Positions 8,625 to 54,129 of a stretch of DNA of 64,000 nt are shown piece after piece. The DNA comes from Curvularia clavata (taxonomy: Eukaryota). The number at the start of each line of letters is the position of its first letter. The stretch's first letter is position 1. The position numbers were made by a program, and so were the translations under genes. A model generated the notes under the pieces. The model worked only from the letters and a program-made list of their open reading frames with translations. It made no database searches and was not told the DNA's origin. The stretch lies in the NCBI GenBank assembly GCA_023920165.1, contig CP089276.1:2170001-2234000 (forward strand), given 5' to 3'.

Positions 8625-9795
8625 ATGTCGCGTGCAGAAGAAATAGAATCTCTTGGGAAGGTCCTTGTCATCGGAGGATGCGGCTTCCTGGGTAGCCACA
8701 TCGTTAGCTTCATCGTGAAGCGTCACCCAAAGACACAGGTCGCAGTCCTCGATTTACGAACCACCTCGAATCGCCATTCTAGCCCGACCGTCTCCTATCA
8801 CGATGGCGACATCACTGATGCCGCAGCAATGAAGGCTCTGTTTGCCCAGATCAAGCCCCACGCGGTCATCCACACAGCCTCTCCACACTTCGACCTGAAG
8901 CCTGAGATTCACGAAAAAGTCAATGTTGGAGGAACAAAGGTTTTGCTGCAAGCGGCACAAGAGGCTGGAGTCAAGGCATTCGTGTACACAAGCTCAGCAA
9001 GCGTAATTCTCGATCACCAAACAGAACTCATCAATGCGGATGAAAGGTGGCCTCTGGTGACTGGAGATGATCAGCCCGAATACTACACCACAACAAAGGT
9101 AAGCGGATAGTCTGATTGAACGCTCCTCGCTTCCCGCTAACACATGTACATAGGCCTATGCAGAGACAGCCGTACTCCAGGCGAACCGCAACCCCGAGAA
9201 CTTCCTAACCTGTGCCATCCGTCCTGCAGGCATCTTCGGCGAAGGCGACGTTCAATTGCTTCCTAAGATGGTCACCGCGTGCCGCAAGGGACAAACAAAG
9301 TTCCAAGTCGGCGATAATACAAACATGTTTGACTTCACTTATGTCGAAAATGTCGCCCATGGTCATGTCCTCGCGGTTCTGGCCCTCCTCCATACCCACA
9401 AAGTCCTGCCCACTATTCCGCTGGATACAGAACGTGTCGATGGTGAAGCTTTCTTCATCACTAATGGCCAGCCCGTCTACTTCTGGGACTTTGCGCGCAA
9501 GGTATGGCACGAGGCGGGCGATCGGGTACCCTTAAGCAGCGTCTGGCATCTCAGCGCCGACTTTGCATGGGTCATTGGCGCGATCCTGGAAAACGTGTTT
9601 TGGCTCATGGGCAAGAAACCGAACCTGACCCGAGCTCAAGTAAAGTACAGCAGCATGTCGAAATACCACAGCATCAACAAGGCAAAACAGCGGTTGGGTT
9701 ACGAGCCGCTTGTTGATCTGGACGAGGGCATCAGGAGAGGTGTCCAGTATATCTTGGAGCAGGAGAAGAAGGCAGGCGAGAAGAAAGGACAATAG
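8625..9795 (+). CDS. ERG26: Sterol-4-alpha-carboxylate 3-dehydrogenase (C-3 sterol dehydrogenase/C-4 decarboxylase)
   Basis: Rossmann GGCGFLG, VYTSSASV, catalytic YTTTK, IRPAGIFGEGD, FDFTYVENVAHGH, C-terminal KKGQ ER-retrieval-like motif; intron 9099-9153. Confidence 0.92.
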
Positions 9796-10055
9796 ACGCG
9801 TCTAGAATCTGCCCAAAATTTCATGAGAATATGTCATAGTGGAATTGGTTTCCATCTGTTACACGTAGCAAATATAGTAGTAATGTAATTAATTGTAGCT
9901 ATGATTTGGGATTCACCATGATGTTGGCTGGATGTGGTTAGAGTCTCCCAAGCGGACCCACTCTTCTCTTGGTTAAGTCGACTCCGTCGCGCGCAAGCTC
10001 ATTGACTTAGCAACCCCACGTCCATCCCCACCACCATGGAGCGCAATCACGAAGT

Positions 10056-11856
10056 ATGTCGCGCCCGCTACTTCCCGAGTCAGCGTACGAAGCGCTCGGT
10101 CTGTCTCCTGAAGCGATCAAAGACCTGATGAATCCCAAGCCCGCGCCGGAACCTACCAAGGTCCACGCCCCAAATTTATTGCAGAGCGACGAGGACAACG
10201 CGCGACCCATGTTGCCTAACGAAACTTCGATAACACTGTATGCCGAGCTCTTACTGCATATCCGCACAGTCACGCTCTTTGCCTCGCTGCGTACGAACCA
10301 TTCGCGGCAAACAGACGCGAAGCTGTCTGCCGATGGCTCCTACATTACTGTGTCGCACGAGGGCCAGTCAGCAACAATACGCCTGCCAATCAATGTCAAG
10401 GGAGGAGGCGATGCTGCTCTCGAGTTACCATCACGGCCTCCAAGCAAGGAGCTGACGTTACGCCTGCAACTGGAAGAGAAGGATGGTAGTGATCTGCTTG
10501 GTGCTCTGCAGCGCCAAGATCGACAAGCCAACATTGTACCTTGGGATGGTGCTTCACTAAACGACGCGAAAGATGTAGAGATTGTTTGTAAGAGCTGCTC
10601 GAGTGTTATCGTACCCAAAGGCAAGATACAACAGTGGAAAGATCTACCCAACGAGAATTGGGCAGAGATGATGGACTTTTGGCACTGCCACAAGCCCGAT
10701 GAACATCACTTGCACGATCATACCCACGAGCATGCCATTGGCCAAAAAGGATACGCAGCTGGCAACCGCCTCCAGGCCAAAGAGGGTGTAGGCTTCGTGG
10801 ATCTAACAAGCTTCCTTCTGACAGAGACTGATTGCGAGGGCACGCAGGTAAGCCTATAGCTTCATTCTGCCTTATTTGTCGGTGCGCTCGTATGATGATA
10901 TTTCGTTATATGGGCAGCGTATCGGGGCGCAAAGAAGGCGATATAGCCTTTCCAATGGCACTATCGTTGATACAAGCGCCCCAGAGCAATAGCTCATACA
11001 CGATCTCTCGGCCCGGATGTATCCTCACCTACCCAAGTTGACGGATTGCCGGCGTGATTGAGATAGCGGCCTGGTGTTTCACTGTCTTTCTACCCTTAGA
11101 CCATTGGGATTGGCGGGTTTAGCCAAAGGCTACATGCATTTCTAAACGCAGTGATATCTTTATGTTATTAGTGACGCTACTTGTGCTGACTTTGCGCAGT
11201 TGAAAACTGAAGGAGCAGAATCCAGCTCAGTTGCATGCAAACACTGCCAGCAGATGATCGGCAACCAGGATCCAACTGCAGGCGGCTGGCGAATACGAAA
11301 GTGGAACGTCAGCATCAACTCCAGTGCGCCCAGTCTACCTGCACATTCCTACACAATCCAAAAGTGGATATCAGCCCGCCTCCTCTACCTCATCGAGAAC
11401 ACTGCCGTCCGCAAGTTCCATATTCATGCCGCCCTACCGCCACACTCTGAAGGACCTACCCCTTCACTGCTTATATGGGTCTTCACTCCGGACCTTCTGT
11501 TCTCCTCATCCATCCCGTCACCCAACCGTCTTGATCCCACTCGCACGATGAAAGTCTTCTACCAAAAGCAGACATGGCAGCCACTTAAACCAGGCGAAGC
11601 AGAGAACGCGAGTATAGAAGATGTAGAGTTCCCCGAGGATTTATACACCGAGTTAGATCGCGCGTTGCAGCAAAGCCAACGCCTACTTCCGCCGACAGCT
11701 AAGAAGTTCCAGGGCTGGGATGTGGGATTATTGGAGCGGTTTGAGGTGGTGGAAGCTGGTATGGGACATGTTGTGGAGGAGTCTGAAGAGAGCAACGATG
11801 ATGACGGCAAGGAAGACGAGAACGAGTATGGGATTCCTTCGGAGCCAGTTGATTGA
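10056..11856 (+). CDS. IPA1: HECT_2-family E2-binding / E3 ligase protein (UBE3D/Ipa1-like)
   Basis: YAELLLHIR, CxxC, WKDLPNENWAEMMDFWHCHKP signature, second CxxC, LLIWVFTPDL; long phase-0 intron 10848-11199. Confidence 0.85.
10920..11137 (+). ncRNA. Intronic box H/ACA guide RNA (sno/scaRNA); 5' pocket complementary to the U2 snRNA branch-point region (snR81-like)
   Basis: Lower stem GGGGCGC(10924-30)/GCGCCCC(10976-82); pocket AAAGAA(10931-36)/GATACAA(10969-75); upper stem GGCGATA/TATCGTT plus GCC/GGC; H box AGAGCA 10983-88, 14 nt from the top of the pocket; second domain closed by AGCT/GGCT and followed by ACA 11132-34. Confidence 0.8.
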
Positions 11857-12902
11857 GATATAACTCAATACAATTCAAGTTAAACATGTCATGACCAAGG
11901 TCTCGTTCAAGTGAATTCACGTACACATGCACACACACGTGAGTGGGGCAATTGGTAGCTAATCGCGAACTATTCATAGATGGAATACTTGTCTCCCGCG
12001 TAGGGCGATGAAAACAACAGAATCCAAAGCCACTCTTTCCAAACTCTCGGAAGGAACAAATGCCGCTTGCCGTATAAACATTTCTTTGACCACTGAGACA
12101 TGCAACACACATATTCCCGTTCCTCCCTACCTCCCCGGGATTCCACGACCCTTCCCCAGCCGACTATCTGATCAGCTAACGGGTACGCACATGATTAGCC
12201 TGTATATCCGGCCTCACCTCCGTCGGGGCACGAAAAACCGCCGTGATTGTTAAGGCGGGTCTGTGTCGTGCATGTTGCATCGCCACCACCATCACACCAC
12301 TTAGACTTTAGCGCTGAGTCACACCTGCATGAGACACATTACGCGACAACTGGACCTTGCCAAGCCGACGTGACACGATGTTTCAGTCGAGCAACGAAGG
12401 GGCAGAGAGAAAGTCACGGGGACACTTCTGTTTCCTATCGAATATCTGTATTTTCTATACGCTATCTGATGATCTCTACCGCAGCCTTGGAAATAACTCC
12501 ATATGAAATGGGGGGAGATCGAAATCAGCGGGTAAAGCAAACTCGTTCGCTCTTTCCAAACAAACAAAGGCCATTTGTTTTTTTGTGAGGATTTTTCTTC
12601 TTGAGATTGTTCTTTGAGGGAAGAAAAAAAACCAGGTGCCCGTAAAACACGCAAGTGATAGGTAAACAGACTAATAACTGGAAGGTGCCATTACATCCCA
12701 TGCCTGTTGGGAAAACTTACTCTGTGATCCACCTCTTTTGTCATAATCAATCATGAACGCTGAATTGCAAAACGATACCGAGAACGCCAGCTCGGGCAAA
12801 AAAACAACAATCTCCTTGAATATACAAAGACAAAACGTGTGGGAGATGTTTACACAAATGCCTGATATGTGTATGCAAAACGGAGTAAAGTTTACTGCGC
12901 GT

Positions 12903-33695: not shown

Positions 33696-36128
33696 TCACT
33701 GTGAGTGAGGCGAGTTGCCTGCCGTGTGTGGCCGGCTGTCATATTGTGAACCGTCATGGAAGCCATCGAAACTCTCGCCAGACGACATCTTTCTGAGATC
33801 ATCACCATCGACCATGTCAACATCTTCCTGCTCATACCGTCCTGGCCCGTTGGAGCTTTGTGGTGGCCCCATGTTCGAGAAGGATGAGTATTGTCGTGGA
33901 GGCGCTGGAGGCGGCACCCCAGCATTGCTAATCTGCTCAGCTAGACTCGGTTTTTCTGCCAGATTGCTGAGCATAGCACGGCTCGCATCCAGCATGGAGA
34001 CTGCATAACCAAGGAAATCGGCACGCTTGGAAGAGACGGATAGAGTCCAGCGGTATTCACACAACCTCAACTTGTAGAACTCGGCCTCTTCTTTGGCAGG
34101 CGCTGTAGCCCACAATAAAGACCCGAACGTGCCGATGAGTGTGAAGTTGACTCTAGAGGCAAAGTACCAGAACGCCTGCAGATGTTCCGGCTTAAGGCGG
34201 TTGACGAAATCCATGGCGGAAATCAGGCGAGTCTTTGCAGCGCTACGGCACATGAAGAGGCCATACGAGTCCGGGTTGGTCGAATCGAGAGACTGTACAA
34301 TACGCCGATGAAGAGTGATCTCTGTCGCAAAGTATGCGAGGTGCAGATAACCGGTCGATGTGAGCTTGCCTTTCTCGGGTGTGTTCATCTTGACTTCGGC
34401 AGGCAGCTTCTCGTGCCACTGACGAAGTTTGATCTGCACGGGTTTCGCACGTGCCAGAATGAGCTCAGTTGATTTTTTCCCAGCGTTGGCGAAATCTTGG
34501 ATGGCAGTTTGAGTGTAGAATGTGTCCATCACCTCCGCCATGATCTGAGTGAGGCCTATCATCTGGGCGAACAGTATCCGCCCTCGCTGGCTCTCCGCTT
34601 TCTCTTCTTCCGTCTCTTCTTGCCGTGTCTCATAGCCGTCCCCTTCCTCGACAAAGTCCTCTTCAGTAATGGGCTTAACCGCCCAGTTGGCGTTGAAAAT
34701 GTGTGATGGGCGACCATGGATCAATGAGCTCCATTTATCTTGCATGTACAGTGCACATGCAATGCGCTTCCTCAGGCCCCGCTCCCAAAGGGGAATTGAC
34801 CATGATGAACAATCAAGGTGAAGACCAAGCTCTTGACCCACCGCCACCAACTGTGTAGTAAGACTCCATGAATCTGCCTCTGGACGCTGAAGCAATAACA
34901 AACCTGCTTGAACAGTAGACAGTTTTGGTCGCTCCATAGCCAGTGCCAATGCCTTCATGGCAATTGCTTCTAACCGAGCTGCATCAGGCTTGGAATTGGT
35001 TGCGAGCTTGGGGTTGAAGGACCACCAGTTGAGGGCCAGAATGTACATACCAGCCAGAAGGGCCGGTGAGAAGCCTCTGTCGCCGCTGCGATACCGCTCA
35101 ACGAAGAGGTGCTTCTGGATGATGGGGTAGTTGGGGTGTACTACTTGGAAGTACAGGTCGAGCAAGGCAGGGCCATGTGGGTGCACGAGCTGCTCCACCT
35201 GGCTCAGTGCCTCGGACTCGCCAGCAAAGTCTTGCGTGTTCTCGTCAGGCAGCATAATGAAGCATTCATGATCGTTTACTCGTCGGAGTGTGCCAAGGTC
35301 GAAAGTAGATTCGTTGCGGGTGTCAAACTGAGAGAGACCTATGAGCAGAGAGTCGAAAGGCGAGCTCAGGCCAATGTATCTGCTGTGCTGGCGTCGTTGC
35401 AAGCCCAGTGTCTCTCCAAGTTGAGGTAGGTGCAGACTTGATACATGAGACAGCTGTGGCTGTGGTGGAGGGGGACTTGGCGCGGTTGCTGTGATGGTGG
35501 GGGTTGAGAGTGCTAGTGGTGGAGGGTCTGAGTCGACAGATCTGGTAGACGATATCAGTCATCCCGTCCAGCCATATGAAGCACAAGACGAAAAAGAGAA
35601 TCTGAGGGTAATGGATGCAACCAATAGGACGAGCGAAATGGAAGGGTACGGTAGCACGTGAGCACGTGACGGTTTCGTATATCGCGGACAGTAGCCATAC
35701 AAGAGGTGGTGGCCGCTCCTTCCGGAAGCGAAGCGTCGGACATTTTACTCATCAATGCAGGGCAGTGGAGGAGCCTAGACATACCTCTTTTTGGTGTTGT
35801 TGGGTGAATCCTTTTTCTCGCCGTCGACGACTTTCCGCTTTCGAGGCAGCGGGCTTTGTACAAAGGTACACTCCTGCTTGTGGAACTCGCACAAGACACA
35901 CAGGGCGGCGCCCTCATGTATGACACAGCGGCTTTTCCTCCTTCTGCAGGCGTCACAGGGGCGTTCCCTCCGTGATCGAATGTTGGAGACGGGACCGTTG
36001 TTTGACGTGGGCTTGGTCAGGTTGTCCTTGGCCGAGGGCGACTTGTGTACTGTGCGAGGGCGAGCTGGTGCTATGGAGACAACGGGGCGTGGGCCCATGG
36101 CCGGCTGCTGCATTGCTACTGCCGTCAT
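33696..36128 (-). CDS. tamA: Zn(II)2Cys6 transcription factor TamA/Dal81-like (nitrogen regulation co-activator)
   Basis: RSRRERPCDACRRRKSRC..CVLCEFHKQECTF cluster; LYFQVVHP, RPKLSTVQAGLLLLQ, QDKWSSLIHGRPSHI, LHLAYFATEITLHRRI, LKPEHLQAFWYFAS; intron 35542-35784. Confidence 0.85.
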
Positions 36129-52810: not shown

Positions 52811-54129
52811 ATGTTCAGGCCACTGTTGCTTCGGCGCAACTTCTCCCTCTTGAACAGAGTACCGCATTCGCAGATAGTACAATCAGCTGCCCGGAATGGC
52901 CACGACAGTATTATAATTCAGCGAGTGCGTATACGCCGACCTTTCTTTAGAAAAACGTGAGTAGCCTCACAAGCCAAGCCCCTTCACATGCTAATCCACT
53001 TCGCAGGCGTTTGGTCGGCACAGTCGCCATTGCTGCGGCAACCTACGGTCTCGCACAGTACTTGGGCTTGGAAGTAGGGATTGAGGAGATAGAAGAGGGC
53101 AGCCATGCGGGGCGGTCGGCGAGTTCTGAGCAAGATGGGTGGGAAGTGGCTGGCACAGCAGATGACGAGGAAGACGAGGAAGACGATGCCATTCTATTCC
53201 TACCCACAGGCTTTGCGCGACCAGGACCCAGGACCTTTTACAAGGGCTCGGATCCAGAATGGCAGGCGTTCAAGCAGATAGCGAACGATCGCTCCAGGGT
53301 CATCAAAATACGACGTAAGCACGACACTGTGGAAGAGTAGTCACTGGCCGCTGACAAGAGAACAGGCGAGTTGATATCCATGATACGCACTCAAATGGCG
53401 AAGAGACCGGTGTGGATTTCTCGCCTTGGAAAGATTGATCCTGACAAGGGCATAGCATGGATCGAATTTGAGTTTCCACTCGGCCCTCCAATCCAGTACG
53501 AGCGTCCAGGCATCGAACTTACTGACAGCCTGGAATGGCGCCGGGCAACACGCCCGGTTGAGGATGCCCATCGTCGGAGGTTAGACAAGATATTCTATCC
53601 CAAAGAAACGGCAGTTGCTCTTTACAATGATACAGCAAGGAAAACAAAAAAGGCATGGCAGAACTTCAAGATCAACATGGGCTGGGACCAGGAGTCCAAA
53701 TCAGAGACGGTCCAGGAAATTGTCCAACGCATAGGTGCTAACCGCCAGTCTAATGGCCAAGCCACAAGCATAGCCACAAATCCTTTCTCGGCCTCTGCAA
53801 ATGATACCCAGCAGGCGAGAGTCTCCCCATCAGCCGCGCCCGTTGATGGGCCTGCAAGCATAGGCTTCGTCCTGCCCAATCCAAAGGACATGACCCTAGA
53901 CCTCACACAATTCCGCACTTCATTGGGTGCAGTTCTTTCGCAAATCAAAGGAGAGCCTCCCCGTGGTACCTTCACGATCAAGGGTCTTGTAGAGGTTCAC
54001 GGCGAGTTCGCTCGCATAACAGTCAATGTCGTTGGTGTATACGACCCAAAGACAGGTCAATATGTGGCCATGAACATGACCCCATATTCATATGCCCGAC
54101 ACAGACAGGCTCCGCGCGGCGGGCCCTAG
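52811..54129 (+). CDS. Hypothetical protein with mitochondrial-presequence-like N-terminus and one transmembrane segment
   Basis: MFRPLLLRRNFSLLNRVPHS (Arg-rich, acid-free); FLPTGF..FYKGSDPEW motif; introns 52957-53006 and 53315-53365 join three ORF segments in frame. Confidence 0.7.

Follow-up and report, generated by a model that had tools for sequence, protein, structure and literature searches.

An intron of an Ipa1/UBE3D-like gene in the genome of Curvularia clavata encodes a real, ancient, intron-borne box H/ACA RNA that is unusual in having a third hairpin. The gene is located in a window of 64,000 nucleotides (nt), which is the whole stretch of DNA that was analysed (assembly GCA_023920165.1, contig CP089276.1, positions 2,170,001 to 2,234,000 of the forward strand); all coordinates given below are positions within this window. 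Judging from its loop sequences, the first pocket of this RNA (pocket 1) is built to place the uridine of the U2 small nuclear RNA (snRNA) that is equal to U42 of yeast U2, and we estimate the probability that the intron encodes a pseudouridylation guide of ~214 nt with the U42-equivalent as the target of this pocket at about 0.78. The initial annotation of this DNA had proposed a hidden guide RNA of the H/ACA class in this intron, with a pocket matching the U2 branch-point region. That interpretation is largely supported: all of its structural claims hold, and the comparative data, namely conservation, covariation and box geometry, back the structure strongly.

Anatomy of the intron-borne H/ACA RNA

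Hairpin 1 of the element is followed by the H box AGAGCA, then by an additional hairpin in the middle, by hairpin 3 and, last, by ACA (Table 1). According to the consensus fold and the covariation described below, this is the hairpin-hinge-hairpin-tail architecture of the H/ACA class, with one extra hairpin in between. The lower stem of hairpin 1 is formed by GGGGCGC (10924-10930) and GCGCCCC (10976-10982), and its upper stem by pairing of 10937-10943 with 10962-10968; this hairpin is present in the minimum-free-energy fold of the whole intron. The canonical hairpin that had been described, with a lower stem, the pocket AAAGAA / GATACAA and an upper stem, is thus recovered by the folds as described, the distance of 14 nt between AGAGCA and the top of the pocket is exact in the window sequence, and the guessed size of ~220 nt fits the conserved block of ~214 nt. 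The length of the intron, 352 nt, is likewise confirmed by direct reading from GTAAGC at 10848 to CAG at 11199.

The RNA is, however, not a plain two-hairpin molecule, inasmuch as a third hairpin separates the H box from the 3' hairpin. In the single-sequence folds of relatives, a structured stretch between hairpins 1 and 3 was found in all ten that were examined (10/10). The lower stem of hairpin 3 involves 11068-11075 and 11122-11131 and the upper stem 11082-11086 and 11112-11116, with GTTTCA (11076-11081) and GTTTA (11117-11121) as the two arms of the corresponding pocket (pocket 3).

Table 1. Coordinates of the host exon, the intron and the parts of the predicted H/ACA RNA in the window.
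Feature	Position	Strand	Evidence
Exon 1 of the HECT_2 / Ipa1 / UBE3D-like host gene	10056..10847	+	Open reading frame; Pfam PF09814 positions 1-193, E-value 7e-59
Intron, 352 nt, GTAAGC ... CTGAC ... CAG	10848..11199	+	Sequence; location between two Pfam half-matches; same-place gap in related loci
Predicted box H/ACA RNA, ~214 nt, ends inferred	10924..11137	+	Conservation block, covariance-model match, RNA-library contigs
Hairpin 1	10924..10982	+	Single-sequence folds; consensus structure; covariation
Pocket 1 5' arm AAAGAA	10931..10936	+	AAGAA in 54/57 distinct sequences; computed pairing with U2 U44-U49 (yeast numbering)
Pocket 1 3' arm GATACAA	10969..10975	+	GAUAC in 53/57, GAUAU in 2; computed pairing with U2 G37-C41
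H box AGAGCA	10983..10988	+	14 nt after the top of pocket 1
Hairpin 2, extra middle hairpin, without a box after it	11003..11064	+	Consensus structure; helices 4-8 81-91% paired, many two-sided changes
Hairpin 3	11068..11131	+	Consensus structure; helices 9-12, all 16 pairs changed on both sides
ACA box	11132..11134	+	ACA in 48/57 aligned sequences; distance to the top of pocket 3 of 14-16 nt in 45/50

A pattern that takes no account of the stems (AAGAA, 20-50 nt, GATAC, 8-10 nt, ANANNA) has three matches in the window, compared with 0.10 expected from 100 shuffles. The other matches, at 34559-34621 on the minus strand and at 53603-53649 on the plus strand, are not recovered by the covariance model introduced below, and the former falls within a purine-rich region where AAGAA occurs repeatedly. 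Within the intron, immediately 5' to the H/ACA RNA, the stretch 10878-10915 is predicted to form a strong hairpin with a C-box-like UGAUGA (10893-10898). This hairpin was rejected as a part of the RNA, given that the stretch is not conserved in related introns.

Conservation, covariation and presence in RNA libraries

An alignment of 40 homologous proteins was used to collect DNA from public metagenomes, and the relatives considered here are 80 metagenome loci encoding host proteins that are 31-86% identical to the protein encoded in the window. A blastn comparison of the 352-nt intron with these loci delineates a conserved block, intron nt 78-288 (window 10925-11135), which, among the 24 listed matches, was aligned exactly in 11 and almost exactly in the remaining long ones. 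Nucleotide identity within the block is 71-83% where the host proteins are 64-86% identical, whereas the flanks of the intron diverge at once outside of it, and both the splice sites and the branch point are outside the conserved stretch. When the 15 closest distinct copies were aligned with MAFFT (three duplicates were dropped beforehand), similarity was seen to begin at the foot of hairpin 1 and to stop 1-3 nt past the ACA. Lack of conservation in related species was named in the initial annotation as a refuting outcome; in the orthologous introns, the element is conserved, and nothing else is.

The covariance model built from the 15-sequence alignment (R1) yields 70 matches in 81 sources: the window has a single one, at 10921-11141 with 211.4 bits, and the 80 loci have 69. 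Every match is on the strand of the gene and between the exon matches, and 52 of them come from loci outside the seed. Among the 11 loci without a match, six (L039, L042, L046, L048, L050 and L051) carry hairpin 1, as identified by a motif search, in the same intron, with GAUAU replacing GAUAC; four contigs (L034, L043, L059 and L075) stop just after exon 1; and in L063 the exon matches are at most 55 nt apart, which leaves no room for the RNA. Altogether, the RNA is present in 75 of the 80 loci, and the only locus that covers the site and is devoid of the RNA is L063. A reading of six loci as intron-less, which follows from the alignment of the gene call P0040, was rejected because the exon gap of ~360-400 nt holds hairpin 1. 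This metagenome gene call (512 amino acids; loci L042, L046, L048, L050, L051 and L060) apparently reads through the intron that bears the small nucleolar RNA (snoRNA).

For the distant carriers, the best relatives with a name, at 39-60% identity, are found in Fusarium, Colletotrichum, Cudoniella, Phyllosticta, Lasiodiplodia, Cryomyces and Hortaea, among others, and this distribution suggests that the RNA is spread over several classes of Pezizomycotina, with the proviso that the taxon assignments are rough. Given that both are common to loci with host proteins only 31-45% identical, the RNA and its location in an intron of the Ipa1/UBE3D-like gene are old. The intron hosts a snoRNA and was retained while the host protein fell to about one-third identity; it is a clear example of an intron that persists for the RNA it carries and that annotation based on open reading frames does not see.

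The comparison of the related introns also reveals extensive covariation. When applied to the 15-sequence alignment, RNAalifold predicts three hairpins with 50 pairs, 10 of which are compensatory. Across 57 distinct sequences, 90.8% of the cells are paired, compared with 72.8% in shuffles and 38-46% with slid partners; two-sided changes occur at 45 of the 50 pairs, and none of 500 shuffles reaches any of these measures. The 57-sequence alignment was fitted to R1 and leans towards the structure, but the independent RNAalifold result points the same way. Pairing in helices 1-3, which make up hairpin 1, amounts to 94.6-98.5%, with two-sided changes at 11 of the 13 pairs. The first pairs of the upper stem vary among the forms GGCGA/UCGUC, GGUGG/UCACC, GGAGG/UCUCC and the CCGG/CCGG type, and the lower stem occurs as GGGCG, GGGUA, GGGCA or GGAUG. 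Beside these varying stems, the arms of pocket 1 are near-invariant (Table 1), so that the covariation check of orthologous introns that had been called for gives the result expected of a guide, with covarying stems and fixed pocket arms.

The spacing of the boxes is canonical and conserved as well. The distance from the top of pocket 1 to the H box is 14 nt in 51 of the 57 sequences, 15 nt in 5 and 16 nt in one. The H box itself conforms to ANANNA in 42 of the 57 sequences and starts with A-N-A in all 57.

Four RNA libraries were compared with positions 10000-11900 of the window; the contigs are of low depth and show presence only. Two contigs, each from a metatranscriptome of a different study, fall within the element (X15, 10931-11082, and X16, 10931-11115), both at least 99% alike to the window, and the libraries from which they originate also yield exon contigs. 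A splice joint was not seen in the contigs of the four libraries, and in X15 and X16 the intron has no contigs over 10848-10930 or beyond 11115; such contigs cannot show absence, and neither result is used as evidence. The common start at 10931 in two studies could be either a genuine 5' end or an effect of assembly where an RNA ends.

These data bear on the possibility that the intron contains a conserved structured element that acts in cis to control how the host gene is spliced or expressed, rather than a stable trans-acting RNA. Such an element would be in line with the invariable location in the same intron of the same gene, with one RNA-library contig (X19, discussed below) that covers the exon 1-intron boundary, and with the fact that the ends of the element are inferred. 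However, a cis element would need neither an H box and an ACA box located 14-16 nt from two internal loops nor invariant U2-complementary loop arms beside freely covarying stems, and the conserved stretch extends from the foot of hairpin 1 to a few nt past the ACA, short of the splice sites and the branch point. We consider a function in cis to be highly improbable and proceed with the interpretation of the element as a guide RNA.

Pocket 1, its predicted U2 target and related guides

In yeast U2, as printed for nt 31-78, GUAUC (37-41) is followed by U42, G43 and UUCUUU (44-49) (PMC4712673). The RNA from the window forms 6+5 contiguous pairs with yeast U2, leaving U42-G43 unpaired, and no other U within yeast U2 nt 31-52 exceeds 4+1 pairs with the window sequence. 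The proposed pairing of GAUAC with GUAUC and of AAAGAA with UUCUUU, with U42 in the pocket, accordingly holds against the published yeast U2. At least 5+5 contiguous pairs around U42-G43 are found in 55 of the 57 sequences, the two exceptions (L045 and L049) being offset in the alignment, and in the GAUAU lineage the pairing with U2 is maintained via a G-U pair. The same position is modified under RNA guidance in other eukaryotes: snR81 guides a constitutive U2 pseudouridine (Psi) in yeast (PMC5824354, PMC5473140), and vertebrate SCARNA4 has a U2-Psi41 pocket (PMC8522698).

Alternatively, a genuine H/ACA RNA could use pocket 1 to act on another RNA, i.e., a ribosomal RNA (rRNA), another snRNA or an mRNA with GUAUC-UN-UUCUU, the fit to U2 being coincidental or secondary. 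The pairing was evaluated on yeast U2, and guides that pair well without acting have been documented (PMC8522698); both points count in favour of such a target. Nevertheless, by our own arithmetic, a fixed 5+5 match at a given site is expected by chance in approximately 1 case in 10^6, which translates to ~0.001 over roughly 1500 rRNA and snRNA uridines; the matched U2 site is a uridine that, according to the sources cited above, is RNA-guided in yeast and vertebrates; and pocket 1 keeps the same arms even in very distant hosts, which is what an invariant target, e.g., the branch-site region of U2, would lead one to expect. Another target for pocket 1 is, accordingly, quite improbable, and U2 is retained as the predicted substrate in what follows.

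By analogy with intronic snoRNAs in general, splicing and debranching followed by exonuclease trimming would reduce the intron to the protein-protected RNA, which would carry Cbf5, Nop10, Nhp2 and Gar1. Hairpin 1 would then pair with U2 on both sides of U42 (yeast numbering), equal to U41 in vertebrate numbering, such that GAUAC pairs with G37-C41 and AAGAA(A) with U44-U48/49. U42-G43 would stay unpaired where the upper stem begins, at a distance of 14 nt from the H box, so that Cbf5 would be expected to convert U42 to pseudouridine.

Yet another possibility is that the RNA is an orphan with the shape of an H/ACA RNA that guides no modification, e.g., with a role as a chaperone or in processing, and that the complementarity to U2 serves for pairing without pseudouridylation. 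A third hairpin is unusual, as is the variability of the 3' arm of pocket 3, and both would be compatible with such a role; modification data for these fungi are missing from the accessible parts of the literature. However, pocket 1 keeps its two unpaired nucleotides and its spacing of 14 nt exactly (51/57), which is relevant only for catalysis. We therefore regard an orphan role as very improbable and a catalytic guide as the preferred interpretation.

Searches against known families yielded no close match. At the gathering score, Rfam has no matches in the whole window and none in 20 diverse related loci, and the suggestion that the RNA might match an existing Rfam fungal family is accordingly not borne out. 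A permissive Rfam scan of 10780-11260 (E-value up to 10) gave only ceN48, RT-16 and HSR-omega_2, the latter two with E-values above 1.

The Rfam scan does not place the intron RNA in the snR81 or SCARNA4 families by sequence; in function, by analogy, it would work like both. The earlier description of an snR81-like or scaRNA-like (small Cajal-body RNA-like) guide for U2 thus stands with respect to the U2 uridine that is placed, as judged from the pairing with yeast U2, but not with respect to sequence, as there is no snR81 profile match in the Rfam scan. We take snR81 of Saccharomyces cerevisiae to be an independent gene that carries its U2 pocket in the 5' hairpin, like the intron RNA. It also guides a site in 25S rRNA. 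The intron RNA differs from snR81 in being intronic, in having three hairpins and in the lack of a detectable sequence or profile match (in the Rfam scan, where the presence of the snR81 model in the library is unconfirmed). Both RNAs nonetheless select the same U2 uridine via an H/ACA pocket (PMC5824354, PMC5473140). SCARNA4 (ACA26) similarly guides the equivalent U2 position and, like the intron RNA, has a spliceosomal RNA as its target (PMC8522698), but there is no Rfam match between the two, and the host gene and the second pocket are different.

Another fungal system is pugU2-43/44 of Schizosaccharomyces pombe, an H/ACA RNA encoded downstream of RPC10 that was found in 2017 by a pocket-arm search and is a guide for the U2 branch-site recognition region (PMC5473140). 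It is not intronic, and its arms, ACAGATAC and TGAAAA, are located in the 3' hairpin and place U43/U44, whereas those of the intron RNA, GAUAC and AAGAA, are in the 5' hairpin and would place a uridine two to three positions upstream. The Pezizomycotina H/ACA RNA reported by Gao, Jones and Rivas in 2021 resembles the intron RNA in that it occupies one intron of one gene and was found by covariation, but it is a different RNA, which resides in a vacuolar sorting protein gene, has a mean length of 177 nt and was assigned to SSU-743/744 (PMC8216456).

Several observations weigh against the assignment of the element as a U2 guide. With regard to structure, the textbook form of H/ACA RNA is without a third hairpin, and 15 of the 57 H boxes do not conform to ANANNA, ending in G or C that is mostly followed by A. 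With regard to expression, contigs X15 and X16 both start 7 nt inside the predicted lower stem, and the X19 contig (10749-11004) continues past the end of exon 1 into intron sequence, which implies unspliced RNA or DNA in such libraries. The ceN48 family (RF01638, an unrelated nematode H/ACA RNA) gives 27.2 bits with an E-value of 0.0034, compared with a gathering score of 70, with the second hairpin of the model skipped; its consensus pocket arms differ from those of the intron RNA. Finally, the target rests on yeast U2 combined with the near-universal conservation of the U2 branch-site stretch, which, to our knowledge, is the same in filamentous fungi. In the parts of the literature that were accessible, the U2 sequences found were those of yeast and the human/plant-type stem-loop IIa, with none from a filamentous fungus, and no U2 pseudouridine map was found for these fungi.

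No description of the intron RNA was found in the literature to the extent it was accessible, although the supplements of PMC5824354 and PMC8216456, which we have not read, may hold an unnamed overlap; in PMC8216456, this could be among the 'intergenic structures with an H box'. In the accessible part of a fungal snoRNA survey, snR81 is traced only within Saccharomyces and no H/ACA RNA is reported in one Pleosporales genome (PMC5824354). The available text of a Neurospora survey predicts no snRNA pseudouridines or their guides, and its H/ACA supplement contains no CGAUACA; an Aspergillus fumigatus screen, in its accessible part, cloned no H/ACA RNA; and the first fission-yeast U2 guide dates from 2017 (PMC5473140). 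Within the same limits, these reports suggest that a guide for the Psi42-equivalent has not been previously described in filamentous fungi. The intron RNA is a candidate for this role throughout the filamentous ascomycetes, which include many plant pathogens and species of industrial use, and R1 can be used to annotate it.

Pocket 3 and the host gene

Pocket 3 is canonical in form. Of 50 sequences, 35 have UUUCA as its 5' arm, and the 3' arm varies, with GAUUA in 13, GUUUA in 8 (the group that includes the window), GAUAA in 8 and other forms in the remainder. The commonest form of the pocket predicts the target UAAUC-U-N-UGAAA. UAAUC would be the end of a loop, presumably as in fission-yeast U2, with which the GAUUA arm would pair. 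UGAAA, to which the UUUCA arm is complementary, is the 3' strand of stem IIa of yeast U2, nt 63-67 (PMC4712673). The uridine two positions upstream of UGAAA corresponds to U60 of human U2, which is pseudouridylated in human and rodent U2 (PMC8522698); yeast has A at this position. We treat U2 stem-loop IIa as a lead for the target of pocket 3 and not as a finding. Stretches of U6, U4, 5.8S, 18S and 25S were also considered; none fitted pocket 3 cleanly, and none is claimed.

If the lead is followed to its end, the intron RNA would be an ancient fungal counterpart of scaRNAs that is wholly dedicated to U2, with pocket 1 for the Psi42/41-equivalent and pocket 3 for the equivalent of human U2-Psi60, the last loop nucleotide of stem-loop IIa. 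We offer this as a tentative idea that is, on balance, rather unlikely. Were it to be true, snR81, SCARNA4 and the intron RNA would descend from one ancestral U2 guide, and the RNA would be released only by splicing of the transcript of a gene for an mRNA 3'-end factor, coupling the modification of the spliceosome to splicing output.

In L080 (3633-3870), the 5' arm of pocket 3 is AUAUCA instead of AUUUCA. This arm would fit the CUGAUA-type stem IIa in the human/plant U2 strings available from the literature, and the two differences might represent a joint change of guide and target.

The apical loop of hairpin 3 (11096-11105) starts with UUAG, UCAG, UGAG or CGAG in many but not all lineages, often followed by A. 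The start of this loop resembles the ugAG consensus of the Cajal-body box (CAB box) of animal scaRNAs, a class bound by WDR79/TCAB1, and the frequent nnAG would be a further likeness to SCARNA4. We know of no description of Cajal-body targeting of such RNAs in fungi.

The assignment of the host gene is based on two matches to the same domain. Exon 1 (Table 1), the start codon of which, at 10056, was inferred from the consensus of the protein alignment, covers the first part of HECT_2, and the piece of open reading frame downstream of the intron matches positions 200-369 of the same Pfam family (PF09814, E-value 9e-42). In the related loci, the exon matches are separated by a gap at the position of the window intron. 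The nearest named host proteins belong to Pleosporales (Bipolaris maydis, 92% identity; Alternaria, 88%), and one of the nearest named relatives carries the name 'ubiquitin-protein ligase E3 D'. Yeast Ipa1 is, as we assume, a member of the HECT_2 family.

Upstream of the host gene, at 9154-9795 on the plus strand, there is a gene similar to sterol-4-alpha-carboxylate 3-dehydrogenase, a name taken from the fused model P0023. This gene adjoins the host gene in many related loci (e.g., L001, L003, L005, L006, L013 and L017), and the two are fused in some public gene models.

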